This document shows positions 1 to 39,813 of a DNA stretch of 64,000 nt, in pieces. A program made the translations under genes and the position numbers. Every line of letters begins with the position of its first letter. Within the stretch, counting starts at the first letter, position 1. The stretch spans positions 496,001 through 560,000 of the forward strand of contig OZ287074.1 of assembly GCA_965645245.1 (NCBI GenBank). The letters are read 5' to 3'. The notes below the pieces were generated by a model. The model made no database searches and was not told the DNA's origin. It was given only the letters and a program-made list of their open reading frames with translations. Source of the stretch: Massalongia carnosa. Lineage: Eukaryota.

Positions 1-1155
1 TCGGCTCATTGTGCTAGGTACGCTGGCACGCTGGACAGAGGTACTCAGTACTGACCTTCGTTCAAAGGGAAACCAATGACCTAAATATCTGCAAGTCTTA
101 CTCAGCTGACAAGGATGGGAAACAAGAACATCAGATACTGGAAGGGCTGAACTTCATAGATCTCCAAGGCAAGACGCAGACGCAGATGGAAACTGTAGAA
201 CATAATCTGTACATAGATGGCTAGGTAGAGCCGTGGTTGCATTGCACCAAGAGGTACGGAGTATTTGTGGGGCGGACCGCCGCGTTGGGTACTCAGTATT
301 TTATGTGAACGCCGATGGAACGGCATTCGAACGTTTGATAGCTGATTGGATGGACGCAAATTATACTAGCGAGGTCGGTATCCGATATCTCAGTGCTCGC
401 TTGCCCTAACACCCTAATGCCCCGATACCATTGTATAAAATCAATTCAGTGGTGATCTTAGGGTTGCTGTATCTTAGTCGAGCTAATCAGGTATCTAACC
501 ACCCAACCTAACGAAGCTACGGAGTAAAAGATGCAGGGCTTTGGGGCAGTGCACCAACACAAATATACTCCGTACAAGCATACGACTGATCTCCGCCACC
601 CCCGCATCAAGATAAATACCCGGGAAGGCCGAGGTTCATCCTGACAAATGTTTGCTTCAGCCAATCCCAGTCAATAGCGTCATCGCATGAGGTACTCTGA
701 AGTGTGTACATGTACACTGTACTCTGTAAAGTGTACTTCGTATCGATTTACCCGTATTGCACGAGAATCCGCCTTAGCGTAGACGTGTATATCTAAATTA
801 CCTTAGCCTCAGAAAGCTAATAACAAGCACGGTATGTGAACATTGAGTAAAATCTTCCAGAGTATTGCGAAGGGGTGCTGTATGGTTTTGTTGAAATAGG
901 TATATGATTATGACTATATGGCTATGTAATAAATGACAATGTGTATGACCCCCTGATGTATAACTAAGATGAAGAGTTGCTATGGAGCAGTCTTAAGTGG
1001 TCACCCTCTACTAAGCGAAGTGATAATAGTTTATCCGAGCCTAGGTTGCCACGGTTGCCACGCCCCTGAAAAAAAAACTGGCAACGTGTAAGCGAGCTTA
1101 CCCCACTAAAATTTACCCCTTTTTATCAACATTTCACCTTTACATTGCGATAACC

Positions 1156-1250
1156 TTGCCTCAGTACCTCAGACGTGCGTGGCTCTATGAGCCGGCTAAG
1201 CCCCTCCGGGTTAGCCTATTTTCGCTAAGCCCCTTCGGGTTAGCGTCGCT
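1156..1250 (+). repeat. Left TIR of the AcademH-like element
   Basis: TTGCCTCAGTACCTCAGACGTGCG... is the reverse complement of 7090-7184. Confidence 0.95.
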
Positions 1251-1769
1251 AATTCCCTTCGGGTTAGCGGCCCTTTAGCTGACTACGCATGCTACGGGCG
1301 GCACGTCTGAGCGCAAAACTCTGTATTTTTGTCAGATCCGGCTTATTTTGGTGCGCGCTCATACAAATTTTTGGCTTAACCTCAAAAATCATCAAGAATC
1401 AAGTTGACGGCGGAATCAACAACGCGCAACGACATTTCATAAATTATGTAATAATAGAAATGATGCTTTGATATACATTCTATCGATTAATCAATATTTT
1501 AATTACATATCGATGCAAAATTGAGTCGCAATATCGATCTCGCGACGAGGACTCGACTTTGACTCGAAATTTCGACACCACCACAGCAGACTCAACGGGT
1601 CACTAGCTCCAGTTTTTCATTGTCGGCGCTTCTGATCATTAATCTGATCCTCCGAGCGTTGTTTTCGAAAGCCTAAAATCGTTGAATGTGATGAACTTGC
1701 TTGATGTGCGTTTTGCGGGCTAAGAATCCAACTCGCGAATCGTCGAATATCGCTCGCGAACACATCGAA

Positions 1770-3947
1770 ATGGACGATCCTATAGCGTCGATAACTCGCG
1801 AGCAGGTGACGACCGTGATTTTAAGTAAATTCGGCTTTTATCCAAAGAATGAGCAAGTTGACGCTATCATGACTTTAGCACAAGATCAAAAGGATCTGAT
1901 ATTTATCGCCAAGACTGGATTTGGAAAGAGTATTATCTTTCAAGCTATGCCATTAATGTTCTCTTGTCTTAAGATCGCTTTAATTATCATGCCTCTCAAG
2001 ACCTTAGAAGCTCAACAGTGCAAGAAATTGAGCGTTATCGAGGGATGCAAGCCTTTCGTGTTGGACGGTGATAGTAATAATTCTTCTAATTTAAAGTTAA
2101 TTCGTGAAAACAATTATACGCATGGTGTATATTCAAATTATGATTGAGATAAATATAAAAACTTACTCGTTAATATGAATAGTTTTTACTAGCCCAGAGA
2201 TAGCGACGTCAAAGCTGTTTAATCAGGAGGTTCTGAGGCATCCAAGTTTCTTCTTGAATTTATGTCTTTTAGCTCTTGATGAGATGCATCTTGTATCCGA
2301 ATGGCGAGATTTCCGGCCCGAATACTTCAATCTCGGTGTGCTTCGTACACGATTACCAGATGGTATTCCTTTTCTGGGTGCGTCTGCAACGCTGGATCCA
2401 AGAACCCTAGAGAGCGTTAAAGATCGCTGTGGCTTTGATAACGAAAGTACTGTTATTCAAACAGCGCTTGATCGTCCAGAGATATACATACAGACAAGCA
2501 GTCTACAGCGGCCTATGAACAGCATGATCGATCTTCAACATCTTTTACCAACACGGGCTGAGAGTCCTTTTGATATTCCGAAAACGATTATCTTCATGGA
2601 TTTTCAATTTCATCTATCAAAAAGGCGTGTGCGCTAATGAAAGTATGGATGAATCAATTGTCCTATCCAATTGAGGCTGCTAGTTGGGTCGCGCCTTTCT
2701 TTTCCGACATGGCCACCCAAGACAAAGAAAGGATTGCGGCTCGCTTCGAAATGCCCTCGAATCAATGTAAATTTCCTCGAATCCTGATCGCAACGGATGC
2801 ATACGGGCTTGGTATTGATAATCCAGACGTTATGAGAGTTACGCAATGGCTGCTACCCTCGTCAATGGCGAAGCTATACCAACGTTTAGGTCGTGCTTTG
2901 CGTTGCGGTCGAGGACAGGCGCATTTTACTCTTTTGCATCCTTCTTGGTGCATGGGTCCAAGAAGCGGATCAAAAATGGACGAACAGGACGGATATGACG
3001 CGGGAATCGAGATTGAATCCAAGGCCAGTAAACGCCGCATCAATCAAAAGGATGCTGATCGGCGACGAGATATGCCACCGGGTCTTTGGGAGATAATCAA
3101 TGTGCCTTCAGATGGTTGCGTTCGAGGTATTGGCTTGAATTTCTTCAATGATAAAGTGTATCCAACGTCGGCCTATGTTAAGCCGCAACCTTGCTGTTCA
3201 ATTTGCGATCCAAGTTTTCAGACATCAACAGCCGCCAATGAGATGTTAAATAGAACGGCCGAGCGTGACTCGTCTAGGCGGCCTTGGTTCACCCTTAAAC
3301 TTCGAGAATGGAGGGAGGCCAAGGCGCAGGAAAAGTTCCCAAATTCACATATGCGATACTTCCCATCATTGATAATGCCCGATGAGGTACTGAATTCTTT
3401 GACCACTTGGGCGGATCAGATTGTGGACGAGCCCACCATGCGGCGATGGATTGGTAACACATGGACTGGTATTAGGCCCTACGGCGCCGAGCTTTTAGAA
3501 ATTTTAAAGCGGGGTCAAGCAATGAGATTAGACGAGGGAGACATGTTCGAGGAATGGAAACGACACAACGACATAAAGAGAAAACGATTACCCAGCCTAA
3601 CATGCAACTCCGCCAGTATTGAATTTGAGGAACGGAGGAAAAACTGGATGATCAAACAAGGATATATGTCGAGAAAGGTTTTTAAAAAGCGAAATGCGGT
3701 CAAGAAGAAAGTCTCGAAGGAAAGCGAGAGCACGGAGCCATCGGGCGAGAATCCTGCGCCTAATCACAATATCTCCGATGCGGCGCTCGTTGTTGACAAT
3801 GTTGATGCTCTTAAATCATCGATGAAGGCATCAAAGACCAAAAAAGCGCCTCGAGATCCTATGGAAGCGTTGTCGCTGAATGTACCCATGGCCCTTCCTC
3901 CGACACGATCTAGACAAGAAAGAAAGTGCCCCGTCCGCTACCTCTGA
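1770..3947 (+). pseudogene. Transposon-borne RecQ-family SF2 helicase, frameshifted near 2602
   Basis: Motifs AKTGFGKS (I), DEMH (II), SAT (III), ATDAYGLGID (V) and QRLGRALR (VI), then a Cys cluster (CVR...CCSIC) and an HRDC-like LREWR segment. GT-AG intron at ~2124-2181. The frame changes in the T-run at 2601-2604. Confidence 0.85.
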
Positions 3948-4006
3948 CTCTGTAAAGCCGCGCGGCGCGGATTTACATGACTAGGCTATCTCGTGGTATC
4001 GATGAT

Positions 4007-6685
4007 TTAATCAAAAAACATACCGCCGGATATCTCGAGACGGGCCATTGAAATGACAGGGCTGTCGGGGACCTGCTTTGTTTCATTGACAAAATCGGGC
4101 TCGGCTTCATACTTACCCTCAAGGTCGTCTGTTGAAATTTCTTTTGAAATTTCTTCGGAAAGATACTGCTGATTGTATTTTAATACATTTTCTCCAAGTT
4201 TCTTCAATCCCTCAACATAAAGATTAGCTGTTGGATTAGTTGAAAATCGATCATAGCTTCTTTTACAGAGTGAATTATGCGCTAGTGCCGTAGCCATGCC
4301 CCACACATCCTCTGCGGCCGATTTTGCTGGATGCCTTGAAGAGTTGACTCTTCCAAAGTAAAACTCAACGATTTCTTTGAGCTTCATAAGATATGGACCG
4401 TTGAGTGCCCAGTTCTCGAGCAAGGTGTCACTATACTTTGAAAAATAAGATCGCTCGTGCTGGAACGTCTTGAGGTTATTGTTTAGTATCTCTAAAAGCC
4501 GATCAGTCTCAAAACTCGACTCTTCGTCACCGCGTAAATTGACAAGACTATTCATTAAAATACTTTCCTGTAGCCTTATGGTCGCTGCGGAAGAATCAAT
4601 CGCATGAAGGGTGTATAGAAGAGCTTGCGCATATTTCGGGGTGCCAGCTACGCTTGCCTGAAAGATCACCGTTGCGTGGCGCAATGCGTGACGAAGTAGT
4701 CCAATATCCGCATATTTGATTGCGTATCGAAGTGTTAGATACGATTCAACGTGATCACAGAAGTTCTGATGATTCTGAAATTGTTGATCAAGCGTTGGAG
4801 GAAGCATATCTATTGACGTTGAGGGTAATTCCGCGTGAAGTTTGCGAGATATCCTGCCCAACATATTCATCCAGGTGCCATCCTGCCCGCAAGTCTGCGC
4901 TGTGAGCCACGAAATAGTTGCTTCGATTCGCTGCGGAGCATATCCATCCTTTCGTAAAAACCTAATCCACGTCCCAACGATTCTAGCTTGATAGCTCTGA
5001 ATGATCAGATCCTCTAAGGCCTGGAAATCGTTCGGCTGCACGACACGAGCGCGGCCCCACCGATCGGCGGCATATTGAAGAGTCGAAGGATCAACCGGCT
5101 GGGCCTCTCCCCAATGTATTTTATGAATAAGCTGCAGCATGTTAAAGCGAAGATGCCATAACCCTAATCCCGGTAAAATCCAGTCGAACCGATCGAAAGA
5201 TTGCTCCGATATCCCACGACGTAATTCCTTGACAGATTGCATTCTCGACCATGTCTTGAGGTCACCATAGATAAGCCGAATGACGCTCGCAAACGTCGAG
5301 TCATCCTCCTTGAACTTGAACTGTCGCACAAATATATCCTCCAATATTTGAATATTATTAGATGTTGTGCTCTCATCCTTCATGACTGGTTTGATAGGAA
5401 TGTAATTGGTCTTGTATTTTTTCATCTTATTCAGCACGGGCATTGCAGTCGACCAAGGAAGTTGAACGTCGCCGATCTCTGGGCCATAAAGCGCTCGAAT
5501 CGCTGACTCTAGATGATGAAGACGAATCTCGGTACGCGGTGCATTAGCGATTGAGCGCGGTATATACACCTCGTCCTGTATTGAACTCACCTGCATCTCG
5601 AGATCACCAGTCTCCAGCTTTCGCGCAATTCTTTCAGCTGATAAAAGATGCGTGGCGGGGCGCCACATATCCTGCCTCAAAGCGCCGGCATCGAATCCTT
5701 GCCCCTGGAAAATTAGAGCGGTAGTGATTGATCTGACGTCTCTATTATCCCCCGTGCGCTCTCCTCGTTTACCTTCTGCGAAGTCAAAGTTATCGTATGT
5801 CAAGATCATGTTTGAGCCTTGTCCTAGCATCTGAACCTTTCGTTCGGCCTCCTTAATCAAGGACAACATGCGCCGCTGCAGGGTAGTATATGACATCGTC
5901 AGGTCAAAATGACAGAGTGTATCTAGAACTCGCCGCCTCGCCCCACCTTGATAAATATAAAGGCCTAAGACGGACTGAATATTGGTCGCCTTATTTGGTC
6001 GCAATTTGTGACAAAGCATTGCCAATATAACGGTGTGCCGGCCGCTGGGAGAATCCAACGTCACATCGAGAGGTTCCTGCGGGCGAGCCTCGCGACAAAC
6101 ACTATCAATTAGCTCAAGCCATCGTGGCGCCAACTGCTTGGCGGCAGATGCAGCAAGTTTAATAGCCTCCAAGGTCCCAAACTCGACTGTCGCAGAGGGC
6201 GGCTGGAAAGGGCCAAAGGCTGCGTGATCTGCCAAAGCTTTGATTTCTTCACGAAGCACATCCGCGGCCCAAACCCATCCTCTCTCGCGAAGGATAGTGG
6301 ATATTCTACCAGGCCCAATGAGGCTTGAAAAGTCTTCTTGCCGCACAATATCGACATAGACAAAATCGAAGAGCTGGCCTTGCGCCTTTCGCATACTATG
6401 ACGGGCTCGATTCTTACAAAGTGTTGATAAAAAATCTTTTACCGACCAATTTAGAGAGCTCAGAAATTTAAGCACCTCAACCAGCTTGTCGTAATCTGAT
6501 ATGCGCCGGCGGTGGCGTTTCGCGCCTCCATTTTTTTCAGGTAAGGCAGGAGGGGAGGAGGAAGAGGGTGAGCTATCATTACTGCCTGACGGCGATGGGT
6601 GGGGCCGCTTGAGCGCACCGGCGGGAGTCAAGGGACTTGTCCGTAGGTCGGTAAGTGGCGAGGAGGGGCCCCCGACAAGAGCCAT
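4007..6685 (-). CDS. Academ-type (DUF6589-like) DDE transposase, 892-aa ORF
   Basis: Uninterrupted ORF inside the TIRs, with motifs YDNFD, YGDLKT, GLWH and DRLLE that fit the Academ catalytic pattern. A possible in-frame intron lies at ~5528-5590. Confidence 0.75.
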   Translation of the reverse strand: MALVGGPSSPLTDLRTSPLTPAGALKRPHPSPSGSNDSSPSSSSPPALPEKNGGAKRHRRRISDYDKLVEVLKFLSSLNWSVKDFLSTLCKNRARHSMRKAQGQLFDFVYVDIVRQEDFSSLIGPGRISTILRERGWVWAADVLREEIKALADHAAFGPFQPPSATVEFGTLEAIKLAASAAKQLAPRWLELIDSVCREARPQEPLDVTLDSPSGRHTVILAMLCHKLRPNKATNIQSVLGLYIYQGGARRRVLDTLCHFDLTMSYTTLQRRMLSLIKEAERKVQMLGQGSNMILTYDNFDFAEGKRGERTGDNRDVRSITTALIFQGQGFDAGALRQDMWRPATHLLSAERIARKLETGDLEMQVSSIQDEVYIPRSIANAPRTEIRLHHLESAIRALYGPEIGDVQLPWSTAMPVLNKMKKYKTNYIPIKPVMKDESTTSNNIQILEDIFVRQFKFKEDDSTFASVIRLIYGDLKTWSRMQSVKELRRGISEQSFDRFDWILPGLGLWHLRFNMLQLIHKIHWGEAQPVDPSTLQYAADRWGRARVVQPNDFQALEDLIIQSYQARIVGTWIRFLRKDGYAPQRIEATISWLTAQTCGQDGTWMNMLGRISRKLHAELPSTSIDMLPPTLDQQFQNHQNFCDHVESYLTLRYAIKYADIGLLRHALRHATVIFQASVAGTPKYAQALLYTLHAIDSSAATIRLQESILMNSLVNLRGDEESSFETDRLLEILNNNLKTFQHERSYFSKYSDTLLENWALNGPYLMKLKEIVEFYFGRVNSSRHPAKSAAEDVWGMATALAHNSLCKRSYDRFSTNPTANLYVEGLKKLGENVLKYNQQYLSEEISKEISTDDLEGKYEAEPDFVNETKQVPDSPVISMARLEISGGMFFD

Positions 6686-7089
6686 GGCTTTCGTCAGATA
6701 GCTTCAATCTAGATAAATCATACAATACCATTGATTGGCCGTCGTTATTCATATCATCATGATCTTTGTAACTCAATGTAATCGCGCCACATGAAAATAA
6801 TCAGTTCATCAACCTCAAAATTGAGCGAAAGCGAACAATTTATCACTTAATCGACTTTCACATCGCTTTTCTTAGCCTGACAGTAGTTATAACACATGAT
6901 TATCGAGTCATCCATCTTGAGAGGTGCGTTTTTGGTATAAAATACAGTCTCTGGTAAACTAATACGACCCTAATCATTGTATTAAATCCATAAAAGGAAT
7001 GGTTGCACTGCTAAAATTTTTATTACGCGGATCTGGCCGTAATTTTGAGTTTTGCGCTCAGACGTGCTATCGCACTGATGTTAGTCAGC

Positions 7090-7184
7090 AGCGACGCTAA
7101 CCCGAAGGGGCTTAGCGAAAATAGGCTAACCCGGAGGGGCTTAGCCGGCTCATTGAGCCACGCACGTCTGAGGTACTGAGGCAA
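7090..7184 (-). repeat. Right TIR of the AcademH-like element
   Basis: Reverse complement of 1156-1250. Additional subterminal similarity between ~7028-7067 and ~1301-1340. Confidence 0.95.
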
Positions 7185-7194
7185 CGATAACCAG

Positions 7195-8067
7195 TCAATT
7201 GAATAGCCGGATAAACCCATTAGCCAGGTGAGCATCGAGGTAGGCCCTTAGCACTGTGAGCTCTGTTTCTGATAGGCTATAAATAGGTCCATACGGAGGC
7301 TGCTTTCCATCCACGAGGTCGATCGCATGATCATGTAGCCCGTGCTCTGGTAGCTCGGCTGCACTATCTTCCGAAAAGACATCTGCGAAATCCTTATAAG
7401 CCTCAGGGACCTTGATTTCTTGTACCTTCACTGAGGCTATTCTAGCTCGACGGCTCGAATGGATGTTATCTACACCTAGCGCCTTAGCATGGACCACGTA
7501 GGTCGGTGTATCTTCTGATAACGCCTCTTCTATGAAGACTTCTGGTTCTATAATCTCTATCCGATGAGTAGTCATCAGGGCCGATTGAACGCTTAGTTCT
7601 CGCCAATTCAGGGTCCTTGCTGACCAATCGATATCGGGATTGGCTAGCTGCAGGAATGGCATGCCCAACACGATATTATGAGGTATATCTGCTATTAGGA
7701 ATGTTTCCTCAAAGAAACGTTGCTGACCTAATTGATCAGTTACCCCGAACACCAACAGACCCATGCCATGTGTCATGACTTGCTGGTGATTAATAGCTTC
7801 CAAACTGACGCTGGAGTGTAACACTGTCAGAGCGTATATATTTGCGTAAGCTCTAGAAATAAGGTTAACTTCACTTCCGCTGTCAATTAGTGCTTTTGCT
7901 GTTTCTTTAGCGTGTGTTATTTCGTACTCTATGCAGGGTGCGACTTCCAATGTCTTAGGACTTGCCGATGCCTCTTTGATAGTAGTCGCCGGTAGGGAGG
8001 CAGCAGCGGCGACTATGCTTTTTTTGGATGGGGACAGTCTTTTACCCAAGGTTCGAGGGATCCACAA
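7195..8067 (-). pseudogene. Ty3/Gypsy pol fragment: aspartic protease plus pre-RT region, truncated
   Basis: ALIDSGSEVNLIS protease motif, IVLGMPFL and DHAIDL...PPYGPIYSLS...NGFIR, then an abrupt end before the RT core. Confidence 0.9.
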
Positions 8068-8899
8068 TTATAGCAGCTATTTTTGTTATTGTCTTGTATC
8101 TCGGTCACAGTGCCTGCGGAATGGCATTGCTATTGGTCGACGGCGCGCTAGTACCAGCCGGAGCCGCATTCCTGCCGCCTCGGCCTCTTCCGCCTCTATT
8201 GCCTCTTCCGTGGTGACTACCTCGATGACCTCTTCCGCCTCGACCTCCGCGATGATTAGTTGGATATGGTTCTCGGCGGCCCTGATCGTTAGAAGCCGGG
8301 GCACCTTGCTCCCGCTTGGAGTAGCCTCTACCTGTTGATGATGGCAACACAGCCGCTCCCTCAGCTAGTTGTGCATCACTGATGAATTCCGCTATGGTAG
8401 CGGGATGTCGATGACCTAGTGCTAAGGAATTCCGAATTATTGGTATGACTCCCGTACGAAGCTTCTGGACCATCTGTTCTTCGGTAATAGGATGTTCCGG
8501 ATCTGCATCGGCTAATATTGTTCGTAGGCGTTGTAAGTAGGCCGCAAAGGATTGAACAGTATCATTGGGACGTTGTTGTGCATGATGGTACTGCATCCAG
8601 GTTCGATCTTTGAAAACTTCTGTAGAGCCTAGTTGATTCATGAGGTTCTTTTTGAACTCCTTCCAGGTAAGATTCAGATGACCCCCTCGTGATAGTATCT
8701 CATGCCAATTGTCGCTAGGGGTGTCTCGAAGGTAGCTGCCTGCATAGGCTATACGACGATCTTGTTCCGTTTCAGGCATGCCACTAGTGTTAAAGACAGC
8801 CTCGCATTGTCTGGTGAATTCGAACAAGGTCTTATGGTCCTTGCCATAATACGGGTCGGGCGACTTAGCTTTGAGGTTATACCTGACAGATCGTTCCAT
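8013..8899 (-). pseudogene. Ty3/Gypsy gag fragment (capsid, Gly/Arg-rich linker, degenerate zinc knuckle)
   Basis: Retrotrans-gag-like ORF 8105-8899 (PDPYYG, TWKEFK, QQRPNDTVQSF). The knuckle CYNCGSLEPWVKDC (His replaced by Pro) is in another frame, ending at TAG 8013-8015. Confidence 0.82.
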
Positions 8900-8926
8900 G
8901 GAGCGAGGAGAGCTATTTACATCAAA

Positions 8927-10033
8927 TTAATGACCAGTCATGGCCCCCTCAGCTGAGATGACGTCCTTTAGCCGTTGAGGCATTGATCGTACTCTCTCAT
9001 TAATAAACTCCTGACTGACTGTCGCCCAGCCCTCACAAATCAATGCTTTTAAGCTCGCTTCGTCCCAATGAGGATACTTTTTAATATGCTGCTTTGTGGG
9101 CTGCCAGCTGTTTTCAATAGGAGCCAAATCAGGTGAAGAAGAGCAGTTGAAATAATGCTCTAAACGATGATCCTCCTTCCATTTCTTTACTGCGTTTCTC
9201 GTCCTGCCTGTGCCATGCCCGGAATCACCATCTTCTTCGAGCACAAAATCATCCCCTCGCTCTAGCCACGGCTTGACAACGGGCTCAAGTATTGAGTTAA
9301 TGTATACTTGATGCGTCATCTTGCCATTGCTGTTGCCCGGCACTTCGTAGAATATAATATCCGACTTGAAGTTGTAGCCTACAGCCGCCCAACAATGCAG
9401 TCTCTTTCGATCTTTCTCCGCTGGCGCATCACGATGTTGTATACAATCCCATCTATAGCGTGTGCCTGGCTGACGTATGATGCGTAATTTGCCCTCGGGC
9501 CCGTAGGAGAAATGAACTTCGTCACTAAATCGTACTCGATACCAATCTTCTGGTTTAGGATATTTGGCCAGCATTATATGAGCGTATTCCACCCGTTTTT
9601 GCATAGGAGGGTCGGCCAGCCATCCTTTGACGCAGGCTAGACATTTCTCGTAATTCAATGCAGCACGTAGCACGTTATGCATTGTACGACCCACAACATC
9701 TGCTCCAACTTCCATCGCAACTTGTTCCCATGTCAAGCGTTTTCCTTCGAGTTGTAGCTCATCTTCCTGAAGCAGCCGATCAGCCTCTCGTACTTGCTCG
9801 CCTGTGATTTTTGATCGTCTTCATCGCGTTTCTACAAGCTCTGTATGATGACGAGTACGTGTCGAAGCTCCTTTGCGAATAATTCTGTAGCCAGCTCGTT
9901 CCGAAACGCCATACTTCTTGAAAAGATTTCGTGGATCATGTACGATGCCTTCATCAAGAAGATATTCATGAATTCCTTGAAGTTTAGCTCGAATGGGAGT
10001 ATCGTAGTGAGTTGCACGTTGCTTACGAGGCAT
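8927..10033 (-). pseudogene. Tc1/mariner-superfamily transposase (DD38E spacing) with one in-frame stop
   Basis: ORFs 9821-10033 and 8927-9736 share a frame and are separated by TGA at 9821-9823. Motifs FSDEVHF, EEDGDSGH and SPDLAPIEN; 38 residues counted between the second D and the E. Confidence 0.88.
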
Positions 10034-13000
10034 GTTGGTGTGGATGGTTGATGAAAAGGGGGGAATTTTAATGGGGTAAAATCGCCTACACGTTGCCAGT
10101 TTTTTTTTCAGGGGCGTGGTTGCTTAAGACACCGCTAAAAGTCTTATGTAACCGATACGGTTAGACTGGATCTGATCTAATCTAATCTGTTGTGCTGGTA
10201 GAAGTTGAACATTCAACAGGTTTCTTGTAGTGGTCATATTATCGTTCTGGCATGTAGTTAGCTCTTGCCATATAAATATTGAGATGAACGGGTAGACTTA
10301 TAAAAAAATCTAGCTGCCCTCACTCTCTTCAAGATAGAGAGCAAGAACAGCAGCACTGCCTCCTCAGCCATTCCCAACGCTACTTCCCCACCCCGAAGAT
10401 GGCGTCCACCACCACGAATGACCACATGTGCACAAACAATTCTATGCTTCGACCCATCATCTACCTGCCCCCAGCGTTTCCCAGCTCCTCAAGTAAAGCC
10501 TGTCATCATTACCGCCAGCCGATGCTATCACCCAGTGCCCGAACTTATCATATTGGCCACCGATAGATTTTCAGTCAAAAAAAGCTTCGCTGACAAGCAT
10601 GGCGGTGAGTCGCACAGAGCAAACGCCTGGTACAGACAAGCCTAAGCTTTGATCCTCACTCGAGAGAGGTCCCGCTCGGGCGCTTGTGATCTCTACACGC
10701 CGCAGAGCCATGATTACCAGCAAAGAACGTCCTGACCTTCGGTCTATTGGTACCTCTATGAATCATTGATGGCCATTATGGGAAGAGCAAAAGGCTCGCT
10801 GCTAGACGAACTTATCGGGTAAAGCAGCGCAAAAGCTCTGGAATGTACCAGAGGGAGGAGATTTGGTGTATCCACAAGGTCTTTGCTAGTGCTCCTGTAG
10901 CTAGACTGATGGAAAATGCGAATCTCTGACATCGCCATACCTCTCTGATCGCAGAACCTTTTTGCTCAGCCATGCTTGCCTTGTCGTCATCATGTATGAA
11001 CCATCATTCCACATTCCGGCTACCTCACCGATCACACCTCCTCACAACGGTCAACTCTGCAAGTCCAATAATTACTCAGAGTCTCAACATCCAAACCCCC
11101 AGTGCTCTTACGAGCAAGGGACGATCTCTCATTTCGTAATGCAATACCCTCAGAGACTAGTCTTTGTTTCCTCTCCTTACCTTAAAAGGCAGGAGGGCAT
11201 TTAAAAGCGGACAAAGTACATCCTCAAAAACCGCTTGCATCTCATATTGAGAGGTATGGATGTCTGCATAGCCATAAAGGCCATACAATCAAGATTATCG
11301 GCGCTCACCATCGACTCGTGTGCTAAAACACACGAGGAGGTAATTATCGCGACTGGTAGGGATAAGCTATCTTGCGAGGCTTCTACGCCGATGGCTGGTG
11401 CCGTGGCGTAGGTTTTGCGAGCTTGCTTCATCAAAATAATGATGTGATACCAAAAGATGAATTAGACACGAGGTTCCACAAGAATTCAAGAACTCTCTTG
11501 GAGTAGGGGCCATGTACGGAACGTCTTCGCCAGCGGCCTCAGACATGATTCATCATACAGAATCTAAATCCCTTGTTAGGCCCCACATGCTTATGAAAAA
11601 TCGGGGACAATTGCACCACGCTACGCAGCTTTTCGTTGTCTGCATGTGACCTTCCAAAGTCTATATGCTTCAACTTGCGCCTTAAAAACGCCAGAGTTGT
11701 CCAGAGCAGATGTCTCGCCAAGAGCTTCACAATGCCAACACTGGAGCCAGTAAAAACAAAGAAAGCGGTTACAAACCACAAACGTTCATTTCGTGAGCAT
11801 GAAAATCTCGCAGCATCATCCTTGTCAGGCCTCGAGGGCTTGAAACAGGTATTAGACAAACGCAACCAGCGAGTAGATTCCCAGCTTTTAGCATAGGCGA
11901 AAAGTCCTAGCTCGAAACGAATGTAGTTTGAACCTCACGTAGGCTGAACTGCTTGACGCAGCCAGACATGCTCGTTGCTCTCTCAAATTTACAGACAGCA
12001 AAGCCAAAGAGAGAACGACTTCGGAATTTACAGCAAACAGTAATGAAAAGCGGCCGAAGCGAGCCACCCACGCTCAAAGCACATTTTAGTTAGGCTTCAC
12101 AAAGAAGATAGTCGCAGGATGACATCAAGGCAAAGTCTCACTAGCTCGTGAAGATCCCAAAGACAATTCTCACAAGGAGGTGCCTGTCATATCCCATCTA
12201 GTGTCTTTCATGACTTTGGATCATGTAAGGCATCGAAAAAAACATCCCATATATGACCAGAGCATAATGCCCAGAAGAAAGTACTGACGCGCGTCCTCGA
12301 CTGAAGATCTTACCAATTGCGGCGCATAGTAAGTCCTGTCAACGTCCAAAGGACACTGGACGCCAGAATCTCCTTTCACTTCCTTCTGTCCCTATCACAC
12401 CGGCCGGAGCCAGAGTTCAACAGACATCGAGAGACTAATCAATGATCTGACAGCTTTTAATTGCGAAGCTTAGTCCTCACAGAGAACTGAAACCGACGAA
12501 TACTTAGGGTTAAGTTCCGAAACCTATCCTCCCCACATTACCCTTTACGGTCTCTCGACCGCAGCACATTGGGCACAAAATACCGTCTCCCATGTGAGAC
12601 CATGCTATGAGGCTCAGGAAACGGCACGTATACCAAATGGGCAGGTGCGTGCGGGGGGCGTTTAGACATTCCTGGCTCGAAGCTGGAAGATGGGGTTCGG
12701 GAAACTGTGGGGAAGGTGAACTGCTTGTATTGTGTAGAGCGGGCGAGAGACGTTATGGATAAAGAGACATTTGAGGACGTAAAGGAAGGCTGTGGAGAGT
12801 CTGCCATTCTGATTTGGTATGATGGTGAGGATGAGCTCTGGGGTATGGTCTGGTCGAACTTGATAACAAGGGCAGGATGGAACAATACACGGCGGTTGGA
12901 AGAAGAACTGAGAGGAAACGGGGGCTGAAGGTGGAGAGTTGGTTAGGTACGCGTCAACAACTTAGCGTGTTTTTTTTTGGTCCTGGCGCTAGTACTCATG

Positions 13001-31188: not shown

Positions 31189-31518
31189 CCAAAGGATATC
31201 GATATGAAAACGACTGTAAGAGCGAAGAGCCAGGGAGAGATCGCATTCTATGTGTCCAGTATTAACTGATTTATCAACAATCTGTTCATAGGATTTAGAA
31301 TCCTCGGCTTGCGTCTTATCGCTTTGCTTCTAAGACTCTGCAGACGTGATCGTCGAGAGCCCACCAAAGTAGCTTCCATTCTACATGCCATTCCCGAAGT
31401 TGCAGGGCGGATCTGAATGAAACCTTAGCAGTTATTAGCGATGACCGTGCATACTTAATGTAGCGTAAAGAGGTAGGCAGATCTAATGCTCTCTATGAGA
31501 ATCAAATCCCATTGAGTA

Positions 31519-33392
31519 CGGAGGCGAATCTCAAAAGTAATGATAATACGCTAAAAGCTAGTGCCGTAATTTAAATTTTCCGTACCGAGCAAATTTTCCC
31601 CTTTTCTTTCCCCTTTTCTCATCCCAAATCATTTACGAACCAACATTTGATCAAATCATCATCATGGTCAATAAATCAGCTGATATTTCTTTGCGGGCTC
31701 AGGTCTTGACGTTGTCTTATTGCACCCCGGCCTCAATTGAATTTATTGCAGCTACTACAGGTTATTCTGTCCCCAACATTTATCGTATTCGTCGCATTGC
31801 CAGGGATCGAGGATTTGATCCCGCCATTTCTTTGCAGGTGCTTGATAAATACGCCCGTCATGAAGAAAAATCTGGTCGACCGAGAAAGGCTACTACTGAG
31901 AAAGAAGATGAAGTCATTGATCTAGTCATAAAAGACAGATACGCCCGTGAAAAAACCAGTGCCCAGTTGGCAAGAGAAGTTGGACTGTCCAGATGCACCG
32001 TGTGGAGAATCCTGAAACAAAGAGGCTATAAAAAAGTCAAACCGTCGTATAGACCAGGGCTTACTCCTGAAATGAAAGCGGCTAGACTGGCTTTTTGTCT
32101 CCTGTATAAAGACTGGACCGTGGAGGATTGGAAGCGGGTTATTTGGTCAGATGAAACAGCAATAGTGCTTGGTCACCGTCGCGGAGCTGTCAAAATTTGG
32201 CGTACAACCAAGGAAGGAAGAAGACCAGTCAAATCCACCGTACGTGCCAGGTGGCATGGGGCTCATGAATTCATGTTTTGGGGATGCTTTTCCTACGATT
32301 GGAAGGGGCCATGTCATTGCTGGAAACCGGAGACAAAAGCGGAAAAAGCGGAAGCCAAAACCAAACTTGACGAGATGAATGCTGCATTGGAAGCCAGTGA
32401 GAGATTAAATTGGGAGCTGACCAATGGAATGAGACGTCTTTCAACTCGCAATTTACTAGGAAAAAAGCCGCAATGGAAATGGGATGAGGAACATGGAAAG
32501 ATGATCAGAAAAGAAGGTAAAGGAGGCATTGATTGGTGGCGGTATCAAAACGTCATACTTCTGCCAAAACTGATTCCTTTTGCTCAGCAATGCAATGCAA
32601 AAAGAAGAGAAGCCGGATTGTCTGAAATGATCGTACAGGAAGATAAGGCTCCGTCTCATGCTTCCAAGCATCAGATTCCCATCTTCTCTCGTCATGGCAT
32701 CGAGCGTCTTTTATGGCCCGGAAATTCTCCTGATCTCAACATGATTGAACCCTGCTGGCCCTGGATGAAGCGACGTACAACTGCCAAAGGTCCTCCTAGT
32801 TCTCGGTTAATTGCTGAATCTATGTGGCATCGCACTTGGGACGATCTACCTCAGGAGAATATTCAGGCATGGATTGAAAGAATTCCACGTCACATTGCAA
32901 AAGTCATTGAATTGGAAGGTGGAAATGAGTATTGCGAAGGACGTTTGGGCGTTGATGGACGGACCAAAGAAGGAAAAATGCGACTTCAACAGCTGAGGGA
33001 AGAATTGCTCAGTAATACAGCAAAACCAGCTTCTTCTTCTTCTTCTTCTTCTTCTTCTTCTGTGGCGTCAACGAGACCATCATCCAGACAATCAAATGAT
33101 GATACACCCAGCCCGTTGAATGTCAGGGCACTTACCCCTGAGCCCCCTACACAGAAGCCATTGACACCCCCCTTATTGAGAAAAAGAGCCGTTTTATCTC
33201 CGAAAAATCACCTTCCCCCACGCATTCAGAAGGTTATTCGTACTGCAGCCAGTTTCAGACCAAAAAGACGTTGATTAGATGGTTGGTAATGGCATTTGTA
33301 GATAGTTGGTAGAATTTCAGGCTCGGTATGGAAAATCTAAATTACGGCGCTAGTCTTTAGCGTATTATCATTACTTTTGAGATTCGCCTCTG
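31519..33392 (+). mobile_element. Full-length Tc1/mariner DNA transposon, 1874 bp
   Basis: ~72-bp TIRs (31519-31590 and 33321-33392, a few mismatches). TA on both sides (31517-31518, 33393-33394). Confidence 0.93.
31664..33274 (+). CDS. Tc1-family transposase (DD34E), intact, 536 aa
   Basis: HTH with SGRPRK, then WSDET, QEDKAPSH and SPDLNMIE (34 residues from D to E). Poly-Ser comes from a (TCT)n tract at ~33030-33061. Confidence 0.93.
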   Translation: MVNKSADISLRAQVLTLSYCTPASIEFIAATTGYSVPNIYRIRRIARDRGFDPAISLQVLDKYARHEEKSGRPRKATTEKEDEVIDLVIKDRYAREKTSAQLAREVGLSRCTVWRILKQRGYKKVKPSYRPGLTPEMKAARLAFCLLYKDWTVEDWKRVIWSDETAIVLGHRRGAVKIWRTTKEGRRPVKSTVRARWHGAHEFMFWGCFSYDWKGPCHCWKPETKAEKAEAKTKLDEMNAALEASERLNWELTNGMRRLSTRNLLGKKPQWKWDEEHGKMIRKEGKGGIDWWRYQNVILLPKLIPFAQQCNAKRREAGLSEMIVQEDKAPSHASKHQIPIFSRHGIERLLWPGNSPDLNMIEPCWPWMKRRTTAKGPPSSRLIAESMWHRTWDDLPQENIQAWIERIPRHIAKVIELEGGNEYCEGRLGVDGRTKEGKMRLQQLREELLSNTAKPASSSSSSSSSSVASTRPSSRQSNDDTPSPLNVRALTPEPPTQKPLTPPLLRKRAVLSPKNHLPPRIQKVIRTAASFRPKRR

Positions 33393-34787
33393 TATATCGG
33401 ATTTTATGAAGAGAGATATGAGATGAGGATGCATTGCATTGGCGCCATCCAAGTCTTTCCGTGTCCAGCTCCGTACCAGGCATATCTGCGTAGGTGTGAG
33501 GTGATAAACGGAGTGTGATAGGTGATCATGGCGAGGTGCAGCAGCCTAACGCTACCTCTGAAACGCCAGAGATCTTAGACAACAGCTGAATAGCAAAGGT
33601 ACGAAGAGAAGAAATATGAGTTTGCCATCTACCATTCATTTGTATTTTGGAAAAAAGGTAAATGTATCACGTGTGATCTTTACCAATTTGCTTTCTAAAC
33701 GAGATTAAAACATAAATTTTATTTGAAGGAGAAAAAAATCCAATGAATTATGAACCTAGGGGTTATGAAATATCATCATCATCATATAGCTGAGCTCAGC
33801 CTATTACAATAGAAGCAGTCATCCACTGCAGCCATACAGAGTACCCACTTCGGATGCCCGTACAGAATACTACAAAAGTATATATGTAGGAGATGTTCGG
33901 ATGAGAGAGAGCGTGCAGGGTCTGGCCTCTCCTTGTCTCCGCCTGCAGAACACTCTCAGTACCTATACCTAACTAAGGCAGCTAGCTAGCTGACCTATCC
34001 TTCTCCTTTACTCCGTACAGGTGACTCTAACTAGTCTAAAATGACGGTGAGATTTCTTTGCTACTACAGAATACTGAGTACTCTATAGAGCCTTTTGTTG
34101 AACAAAAACATCAACCAGGCATACGGCAGCGGGATGCAGGAGAAGAGGGTCTAGGGCTATCAAGGATAGGCAAAGAGAAGTGCTTGGCAAACGTGATGCA
34201 GGTACTCCGTATTTCCAGTGAAGATACTCCAAATTTAGCTATCTGCTGAACTGAATTCTGGACGACTGAATAGCTAAATTACACGAGGAATCACCGTCTC
34301 TTTATACTGCTTGAGGGCCTCCATCTCGGCCTATATCAAATGCATGAACCTGCTTCCTTTGAACCTTTCAGCTGGGCAAAATACACCTTATTGCTGACCG
34401 GAGACACCGAGACACTCAGTGATCATGAACAGCTGAATTGCCTCCGAAATGTAGCATTTTTGCTGCATACCTTTGCCTCCTCGTAGTTGCCGAAGTCGTG
34501 CCGATCTGAAGCTTTTCGCATAGCATATGATTGCCTAATCTGGAAATTAGTAAGCAGGAGGCAAAAGAACCTCGGTCGCAAATATTCAGGTATCTCGGCA
34601 AATTCCAATACCTTTCGTACCACTTTCTCCAGTGGCCAACCTCATAACTAGCCTGAAGTCCTTCAGGCCTAGGAAACAATGGAAGCCACCTGAGAGGCCG
34701 TTCTGTTGGCGAAACCTCCTCCATTAGTGTGAATGAGCATTCTAAGCATTTCAACCTCTTCCACCGTCAAGATTAGGCCCTGGTATC

Positions 34788-37170: not shown

Positions 37171-37251
37171 ATCGCCAACGCTGAAGCCCACCTCGGTGGC
37201 CGTTTGAAAGATCAACGTCTCTACTGATCATTCATCACTTCGAAGGCATAC

Positions 37252-37573
37252 AAAGCCCATTCATTCGGAATGGCCACACCCCTCAGGCGGAAGCCTTTCA
37301 CCTCATCGAAAAAGTCCATTCAGTCGGAATGGCCACACCCCCCAGGCGGAAGCCTTTCACCTCATCGAAAAAGCCCATTCAGTCGGAATGGCCACACCCC
37401 CCAGGCGGAAGCCTTTCACCTCATCGAAAAAGCCCATTCAGTCGGAATGGCCACACCCCCCAGGCGGAAGCCTTTCACCTCATCGAAAAAGTCCATTCAG
37501 TCGGAATGGCCACACCCCCCAGGCGGAAGCCTCTCACCTCATCGAAAAAGCCCATTCATTCGGAATGGCCACA
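37252..37573 (+). repeat. 59-bp tandem repeat, ~5.4 copies
   Basis: Unit AAGCCCATTCAGTCGGAATGGCCACACCCCCCAGGCGGAAGCCTTTCACCTCATCGAAA with few substitutions. Confidence 0.97.
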
Positions 37574-39475
37574 TTTTCACATCTTCATTTATACGACACC
37601 ACGATCTGCCCTCGATCATGGCCAGTCTATCATCTATTGAGCCAAAACGGTTAAAGAGAGAGAATGTTCGTCGAACGTGTGGAGATACACTGTCTAGTTC
37701 ATCGGGTCTATAGGATTCCTAGCGCTTGAATATCTGGGTGTATGCACCGCGTGGTAGAAGAACGATCTCGTTGCGTTCAATATGGAATAAAAGGGAGTGG
37801 TTTTACCCTGGGGGCCAGTTTTCCACTTCCGGACTGTTGTTTATGTACATAAATAGCAGTCACAGCGTCATATCCTAAGGATGCATACGCTTAATGAATA
37901 AATAAAAAAATAAAAATAAAAAAAAAGTCGGATTATATATGTGCCCAAGGAGTAGAACATGATAACTTTCCGACTTCAAAACTTTCCGAATCTCAGCAAA
38001 GAATTAATTCTCTGCTTGATTTGCTCCCAAACGCGTCAGCGAGGCCTAGATTTGACTTACCTACCGCTCTTCCCCCCTCACTAGAGACGCCTACTCCGGA
38101 ATAATCCCGCTCCCTTCATAAAGAACTCTGTTCCACTTCCTCCGCCCCCGCGTGTTTCCATTTCGTTCCCAAAAGCCCAGTATTCCAAACGTGGAAGATT
38201 TTAAAAAGGGGTTTGCATATGGACAGGGGGAACGGCAAGAGCCATGAAGGCGTGGAAGCTGGGCGTCTTGAGATTAACACCCCTTGAACTAAGACTAGGA
38301 AATGAGAAATCTATCGCTCTTGCTATGAGGACGCTGCCTGTCTCCTTTATCATGTGTCGAAGACTGCGCAAGAGGCATGTGCCTTTTCATACACACAAAA
38401 AGCGGGTAATCGCTGTAGACAACCTCGTTCTTCTGCAAGGCAACCAATATTTTTAATCAATTCGTATAATTCTACATGCCAACTTGAGGCTTCTTCCAAG
38501 CAGGTTCCGCGATCAGCAGTTACTCGACCGATATGGCACTACGTTACATTAGGAACAGCCCATACAACATGAGTGTAAGTGGAGGAATCTCCGATGAAAG
38601 GAGTAGGTAAACAACCTCCACATCTCTGGGATCGGATGGTTCAATACCGAGTTTACTCCAGCATTTTGTACTCCGCCTTAGGTCATAAAAGCTTTTCTGC
38701 TGCAGTTTCCTTTTTGATTTCTCGTATGATGTTGATTACCTTAGAGTATTAATTATATTTGCTTGGATTACCTGTCTTAGTACTTCGTACTTGAGGCTAG
38801 TACTAGCTCTGTCTGGCCATGTTTGTAGCATTTAGCGACCGGACTAGCTTGCCTCGAGCTCGGAAAAGGAAGACCCCAATACCGTTGCTGGGAGGAAAAC
38901 AGAAAATATAAAGAAAATTGCGGACGCTTTGGCTCATAAATTTTTCATGCGTTTCACCTCTCTTACTTCAGCTATTCGCTGCTGGAGAGATCCTTTTTCT
39001 GCTTGAGCAAAGAAATGCCCATAGGATTGAAATAAAAAATTATACATGTAAAAAAATACCCTACATATTGGAATAGAATAGAACCTTCAATCCCACAATC
39101 GGACAGTCTCATCCCGGGGGAGCCTAGCGCGCCCATCGCGATGAGTCATCCATTCGGGACCACGATTTCTTTCGTGATGATCTTTCCAGCAATGCTTTAC
39201 CACGTCCTCGTGGGGATCGCGCCCTAATACAAGCGACCGAAATTTTGCATGGCATGGGTGAGATGGTGATAACTTTCTGTTTGAAAATCGAGCCGAAAGC
39301 GCATGATTGTCGTTGAAAACGAGCTCGTAATCCCCGCATTTTCCCTCTCAAGTCAAGTCACGGTTTTTCCCACTAAAGGGACCAGAGGTTTTTTTTGAGA
39401 CTGTCAACTTTTGATCTTGAAACTGACTTCACATTTGCCTGTAGCGCCCGCAATTTACGAGCACGGACGACTTCA

Positions 39476-39615
39476 CAACGAAAACTGACAGTCTCAACGA
39501 AAACTGACAGTCTCAACGAAAACTGACAGTCTCAACGAAAACTGACAGTCTCAACGAAAACTGACAGTCTCAACGAAAACTGACAGTCTCAACGAAAACT
39601 GACAGTCTCAACGAA
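39476..39615 (+). repeat. 19-bp tandem repeat, 7 perfect copies plus a partial copy
   Basis: (CAACGAAAACTGACAGTCT)x7 followed by CAACGAA. Confidence 0.97.
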
Positions 39616-39813
39616 TTTTCTACGAAGCTCGTTTAAAACGAGCCAAAAATTACTTGCAGCAGCAAATTACTCACCCCAAAACTTTTCTTACTCGCATACC
39701 CCCATTTTCTTACTCCTATAACCCCCATTTTCTTTCGATACTGAATAACCTCATCAGTCAATGCATACATCTGGTCAATCAACTGCGACGTTTTCATATT
39801 CAGAATTGCAGTA

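Follow-up and report, generated by a model that had tools for sequence, protein, structure and literature searches.

Copies of an AcademH-like transposon of Massalongia carnosa mostly lie at a fixed distance from a Yap1-type sequence motif

RESULTS

The window analyzed here, a 64,000-nucleotide stretch of contig OZ287074.1 of Massalongia carnosa, carries at positions 1156-7184 a DNA transposon of 6,029 bp, whose family in this genome inserts mostly at a constant spacing from a target motif, a finding that is strongly supported by the counts given below. Insertion at a fixed offset near a transcription-factor-type motif, seen in roughly 60 to 85% of the distinct sites bounded by a target site duplication (TSD), is a surprising feature.

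Target motif at a fixed offset

Offsets were counted from the element end with the TSD included, so that 24 to 26 bp corresponds to 16 to 18 bp past the TSD. A genome-wide scan for an exact element end followed by 10 to 40 bases and then T(T/G)A(C/G)T(A/C)A revealed 60 core matches outside the ends, 53 of which lay at 24 to 26 bp (3 at 24, 38 at 25, and 12 at 26), with 7 spread over the remaining 28 offsets and a chance expectation of ∼0.4 to 0.75 matches over the three offsets; of the 281 exact ends in the genome, only 53 had the exact core at 24 to 26 bp. The 8-bp core T(T/G)ACGT(A/C)A gave three matches over the 31 offsets, at 25, 25, and 24 bp. An unselected set of sites was also assembled from the first 25 loci of the copy search together with 60 regions that took in the first 100 ends listed, chosen blind to the motif; only TSD-bounded insertions were kept, and similar sites were merged because some flanks recur. 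Among the 38 distinct sites so obtained, the exact core was present at 24 to 26 bp in 23 (versus 0.28 per control window) and a 7- or 8-bp core, exact or with one mismatch, in 32 (versus 2.28 in the control), leaving 6 without an exact or near motif at these offsets. Full-size copies showed the exact motif in 16 cases of 20 and a near motif in 19, the window copy being the exception, and an unrelated transposon used as a control had the motif at 24 to 26 bp at 0 of 21 ends.

The motif is a palindrome, (T)G(C/A)-T(T/G)A(C/G)T(A/C)A-(G/T)C(A), as derived from 56 distinct, partly motif-selected contexts. Exact cores were found in 41 distinct contexts, one of which, for example, was shared by five ends. 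The motif stands on either side of the insertion and in either orientation (facing element end, 17 versus 20), and one motif site had been hit from both its sides. The flanks of the element were mostly other transposons, and the surviving copies may therefore reflect a selection filter; a scan of open reading frames in the flanks (98 of 99 listed frames) returned mostly transposon families and no matches to stress genes. Among relatives from other samples, a near match at 25 bp was found in only 1 of 11 flanks, which is about the chance level, and the targeting is therefore a finding for one genome.

Structure and coding capacity of the element

The features of the window copy are as follows.

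1148-1155, no strand: left TSD, 8 bp, CGATAACC, single in 11/11 empty sites
1156-1250, plus: left terminal inverted repeat (TIR), 95 bp, starting TTGCCTCAG, with repeated CTAAGC/GGTTAG half-sites inside
1278-1288, plus: Yap-like motif GCTGACTACGC in the subterminal region, differing by one base from the target core and conserved at the helicase end in three sister families
1301-1340, plus: inner inverted repeat, left copy, 83% match to 7028-7067
1770-2124, plus: RecQ-like helicase exon 1, Walker A GFGKS
2125-2182, plus: predicted helicase intron, 58 nt, GT...AG, donor +5 base differing in the window copy and copy L002
2183-3947, plus: helicase exon 2, frameshift at 2601-2602 in the window copy
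4007-5527, minus: transposase exon 2, DUF6589, with D475, H511, and E732 (892-aa frame numbering)
5528-5590, minus: predicted in-frame intron, 63 nt, GTGAGT...GCTAAT..., acceptor GAG here and TAG elsewhere
5591-6685, minus: transposase exon 1, helical N-domain, first catalytic residue D298 in YDNFD
7028-7067, minus: inner inverted repeat, right copy
7080-7089, minus: Yap-type motif GCTGACTAAC in the subterminal region, matching the core exactly and conserved as TTACTAA in two sister families
7090-7184, minus: right TIR, 95 bp
7185-7192, no strand: right TSD, 8 bp, CGATAACC

An earlier note, made from the letters of the window, had described 95-bp TIRs with TTGCC ends, an exact 8-bp TSD, and two convergent genes with stops ∼60 bp apart, all of which was borne out: the TIRs (1156-1250 and 7090-7184) differ by one mismatch and end in TTGCC...GGCAA, CGATAACC stands on both flanks and cannot be extended to 9 bp, and 59 bp separate the two stops. 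All 11 of the other fetched copies of the Tc1-like target element have the octamer once, and because these empty sites hold a single CGATAACC, the TSD length is 8 bp. A 9-bp reading of the window-copy TSD was considered and was unsupported, the flanking octamer not being extendable.

The minus-strand protein, which the earlier note took to be DDE-like and proposed for profile and structure searches, had DUF6589 as its sole Pfam match at an E value of ≤0.1 (E = 3e-62). Its structure model (pLDDT 87, pTM 0.83) matched the folds of the P element (Z = 9.4, rmsd 6.2, 353 residues aligned), Hermes (Z = 9.0), and ISCth4 (Z = 8.4), the likeness to the P element and Hermes being at 8 to 13% identity. 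In the alignment rows that have a residue at the position, D298 was kept in 51 of 53, D475 in 79 of 83, and E732 in 79 of 82, and H511 was also conserved. Since the model matches DDE transposases and these four residues are conserved, the DUF6589 protein here is, going by its modeled fold, a DDE transposase; the proposed searches therefore upheld both DUF6589 and the DDE/RNase H fold, and the superfamily is not named by the fold match. In a fold search, no match to the N-terminal exon reached Z ≥ 5, and atlas searches returned DUF6589 or unnamed fungal clusters only. A bZIP domain inside the transposase or the helicase was considered and was unsupported.

The single 892-aa frame assumed previously did not hold for the family, being open only in the window copy and L002; all other full-length copies carry an in-frame TAG at 5528-5530. 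This TAG closes a 63-nt stretch with a GTGAGT donor and a GCTAAT branch site, homologues lack the corresponding 21 residues or break there, and the confidence of the transposase model drops at the same place. Because of these four observations, the frame probably holds a 63-nt intron, and the real protein is predicted to have 871 aa; intron retention in the other copies would give a truncated transposase of 386 aa. Truncated proteins arising from intron retention act as repressors in the P element.

The plus-strand gene encodes DEAD and Helicase_C domains (Pfam), and with an intact sister copy as the query its best solved-structure match was E. coli RecQ (E = 9e-17), in agreement with the RecQ-type helicase first proposed. 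The window element cannot be called complete as it had been, its helicase being frameshifted by two extra T at 2601-2602 that are confined to the window copy and L002 and absent in 24 of 26 aligned copies; the spliced helicase frame of the window copy ends at codon 270 of 705. These two copies share four derived changes (2129, 2601, 4274, and 5530), which include the splice signals of both genes and the helicase frameshift. They occupy different insertion sites with different TSDs; therefore, a helicase-defective copy moved at least once, presumably in trans.

Family size and recent activity

A DNA search, in which 25 of 272 candidates were scored, recovered at least 21 near-full copies with 99 to 100% identity in the same genome. 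A 19-nt terminal pattern marked 319 ends genome-wide (control, 1), and the exact terminal 13-mer marked 281. The mean pairwise distance among 26 copies was 0.33%, which accords with the young age assigned to the element earlier. Also present in the fetched stretches were non-autonomous derivatives (0.2 to 0.8 kb) as well as two sister families, which share the termini and have about 55 to 70% protein identity. An exact 8-bp TSD bounded 19 of 21 full copies, the other 2 having none; across the fetched loci, all 46 exact TSDs were 8 bp long, making this length family-wide, and the 9-bp TSDs named beforehand as the case against it were absent among them. Sixteen both-ended fetched loci had no exact TSD, three of these having an 8-bp TSD with one mismatch. 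Both frames were open after predicted splicing in 8 of 26 copies. A recently active, AcademH-like cut-and-paste DNA transposon with non-autonomous derivatives is the best explanation. Four sequencing runs showed the majority alleles, possibly from the same organism and hence not as independent support.

Several copies had unusual surroundings. Five of them (L014, L015, L035, L086, and L009) were nested in or adjoined the ends of their own relatives, several at 25 bp from a subterminal motif. Both ends of L084 had identical flanks in inverted orientation, and the flanks of L019 and L021 did not match, which suggests rearrangement between copies.

Landing site of the window copy

The window copy lies within another transposon, and three features describe the site.

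1059-10118, minus: Tc1-like target element of the window copy, PF13358 DDE_3
7204-8910, minus: LTR-retrotransposon fragment, 1.7 kb, with gag, protease, and the start of RT
8917-8924, plus: TTACATCA, one mismatch to the 8-bp core (post hoc, weak)

The Tc1-like element (L171-L180) is 1.3 kb long, with CACG termini and, in place of TA, variable 5-bp TSDs; of its 10 both-ended copies, 8 have an exact TSD and 2 have one mismatch. Its CAC ends and 5-bp TSDs resemble those of Transib and are unusual for a Tc1-type transposase. In a post hoc comparison, 10 of the 11 intact copies of the target element carried a TTACATCA-type core at a distance of 25 bp from the insertion point. In the window, TTACATCA may since have been displaced by the retrotransposon fragment, a weak, post hoc suggestion. 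The fragment lies 11 bp past the right TSD, with no target bases lost and no evident duplication, and could be a repair-associated capture. Elsewhere in the window, a pair of 74-nt inverted repeats (92% match) 1.7 kb apart at 31517-33394 is likely a TIR element, and tandem arrays occur at 37193-37632 (59-bp period) and 39454-39634 (19-bp period).

DISCUSSION

What reads the motif

The accessible part of one study of the stress regulator Yap1 gives its sites as TGACTAA, TTAGTCA, TTACTAA, T(T/G)ACAAA, and the YRE-A TTACGTAA (PMC6545440), and all of these types, including the 8-bp TTACGTAA, occur at the element offset. A Yap1 gel-shift probe contains ATTAGTCAGC, according to the accessible part of its source (PMC4257542), and this sequence fits the target consensus including the flanks. 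The host genome encodes a Yap1 orthologue (PF08601, E = 2.7e-77) in which the bZIP is present. Overlapping half-sites with a 1- or 2-bp center are typical for bZIP dimers. Because the consensus matches Yap1 sites, the host has Yap1, the 1-/2-bp center is bZIP-like, and Tf1 offers a precedent, we favor, with a probability of about 55%, the reading that the transposon is tethered to a bound Yap-type bZIP factor, which would steer the landing site. In such a process, a host Yap1-type bZIP dimer would bind the palindrome, the transpososome would dock on it directly or via the helicase, and the cut would fall ∼2.4 helical turns from the palindrome center, the 8-bp staggered joining of the target being evident from the TSDs; close to the two ends of the element, the motif might have a role in assembling the ends or in expression tied to stress, and helicase-defective copies would have moved in trans. 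The further proposal that the host oxidative-stress bZIP is a base-pair-precise target selector, with the helicase possibly an adaptor or spacer like TnsC of Tn7 and the whole a natural "calling card," is tentative and, in our estimate, short of even odds.

The element itself also carries the motif, 97 to 129 bp inside both ends in all three families, with the helicase end one base off, and CTCAG/CTAAGC half-sites resembling half of the target motif are found in its termini and subterminal repeats. Since the element ends are so rich in motif-like half-sites, the transposase may read the motif directly; it, or the C-terminal part of the helicase, would then read the palindrome via end-binding domains, and the likeness to Yap sites would be coincidence or convergence. 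Dada transposons are argued to recognize their target sequence themselves, in the accessible part of the source (PMC8869645), and direct reading would fit the fact that three families with 55 to 65% protein identity have all retained the motif near their two ends, the one-base departure of the conserved helicase-end motif from the Yap core, and the insertion of L014, L035, and L086 by their own relatives, 25 bp away from the subterminal motif of the latter. The targets, however, reproduce the Yap repertoire, with cores of 7 and 8 bp as well as T(T/G)ACAAA, and the transposase model is without a long basic zipper helix. Overlapping half-sites with a 1- or 2-bp center are a trait of bZIP dimers and likewise speak against direct reading, which we regard as the main rival, though an unlikely one.

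A bound bZIP factor could instead bend or open the DNA, so that insertion would take place at the edge of its footprint without protein contact. The symmetry about the motif, the free orientation, and the match of the motif to a host factor would suit such a process, but the placement is too precise for it (a single base accounts for 38 of 53 matches and two bases for 50), a single motif dominates, and the unrelated transposon lacked any such offset (0 of 21 ends), so we consider it improbable. The idea that selection, or repeated insertion or duplication within a small number of repeat families, has produced the offset artificially has very little to recommend it: some flanks do recur (e.g., five ends in one context) and flanks are mostly transposon DNA, but 23 of 38 sites survive merging against 0.28 expected, the exact contexts number 41, and selection would not explain an offset held to 1 to 2 bp.

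Significance

According to the accessible part of one account (PMC8869645), little is known about how eukaryotic DNA transposons achieve target specificity, for which Dada, Pokey, and CryptonV serve as examples. No eukaryotic DNA transposon that inserts a set number of bases away from a bZIP-type site was found in the literature covered, which included the accessible parts of PMC8869645 and PMC6719617 and lay mostly outside subscription papers. The confirmed 8-bp TSD is a modest novelty, and the target choice is the new result. Whether a host bZIP factor or the transposase is the reader, the system offers a direct assay for the unexplained AcademH-like helicase, a route for preferential mutation of stress-regulated DNA, and a possible targeting tool. 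If the tethering reading is true, the insertion site, and perhaps its timing, would be linked to stress, and the AcademH helicase would gain a testable role. The targeting can be tested experimentally because intact copies exist (8 of 26).

Relatives and comparison with known systems

Where close homologues are named, they come from lichen-forming ascomycetes. A transposase profile retrieved 2,203 cluster representatives at an E value of ≤0.001, a helicase match lay near the transposase in 12 of 26 related metagenome loci, and one close relative had the same terminus. A distant DUF6589 family (∼27% identity) had similar termini, TTACCTCAG, and a 9-bp TSD in its one both-ended copy (L156). Low-complexity "TSD" matches in AT-rich related loci were rejected as chance.

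AcademH, as reportedly set out by Kojima in 2020 in Mob DNA, is the lineage of the Academ superfamily with a helicase. As far as the accessible descriptions go (PMC10045372, PMC10799480), the present element shares with it a DDE transposase, a separate RecQ-like helicase gene, TIRs, a long non-specific TSD, and a fungal host, whereas the TSD is 9 to 10 bp there (PMC10045372) and 8 bp here (46 of 46 exact), AcademH is described as low-copy against ∼300 ends here, and a fixed-distance target motif is not mentioned in the accessible parts for AcademH. Because its TSD differs from the stated 9 to 10 bp and its placement within Academ is only putative, we call the element AcademH-like rather than a member of AcademH. 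KolobokH, in the accessible part of its description, is likewise a fungal DDE transposon with a RecQ helicase, but Kolobok has a 4-bp TTAA TSD and RR...YY termini (PMC9587614) in contrast to the variable 8-bp TSDs and TT termini seen here. KolobokH identity was ruled out by the TSD and termini. The KDZ/Zisupton, hAT, and P groups have 8-bp TSDs; in the Pfam search, the one transposase profile matched was DUF6589 (E ≤ 0.1), and the structural resemblance to P and Hermes comes with 8 to 13% identity.

With regard to target choice, Dada and Pokey are also eukaryotic DDE transposons with target specificity, but, going by the accessible accounts, they insert inside multicopy RNA genes at a recognized sequence, whereas here the motif is outside the TSD and the sites are dispersed. 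The insertion spacing of Tn7 from its recognized site is set in the TnsD pathway. That pathway, as far as its accessible descriptions go, resembles the present system in the set distance and the element-encoded ATPase and differs in being bacterial, with one site, a fixed orientation, and an element-encoded target reader, where the insertions described here are symmetric and unoriented. Atf1 of the Tf1 system is a bZIP protein. Tf1 integrase, according to the accessible parts of the sources, binds Atf1 and Sap1, and the Tf1 LTR carries a Sap1 site (PMC5371812, PMC7175516); Tf1 thus differs in using a retrotransposon integrase and another factor, without a helicase, yet, like the present element, it inserts beside sites of a host DNA-binding protein and carries such a site in its own ends.
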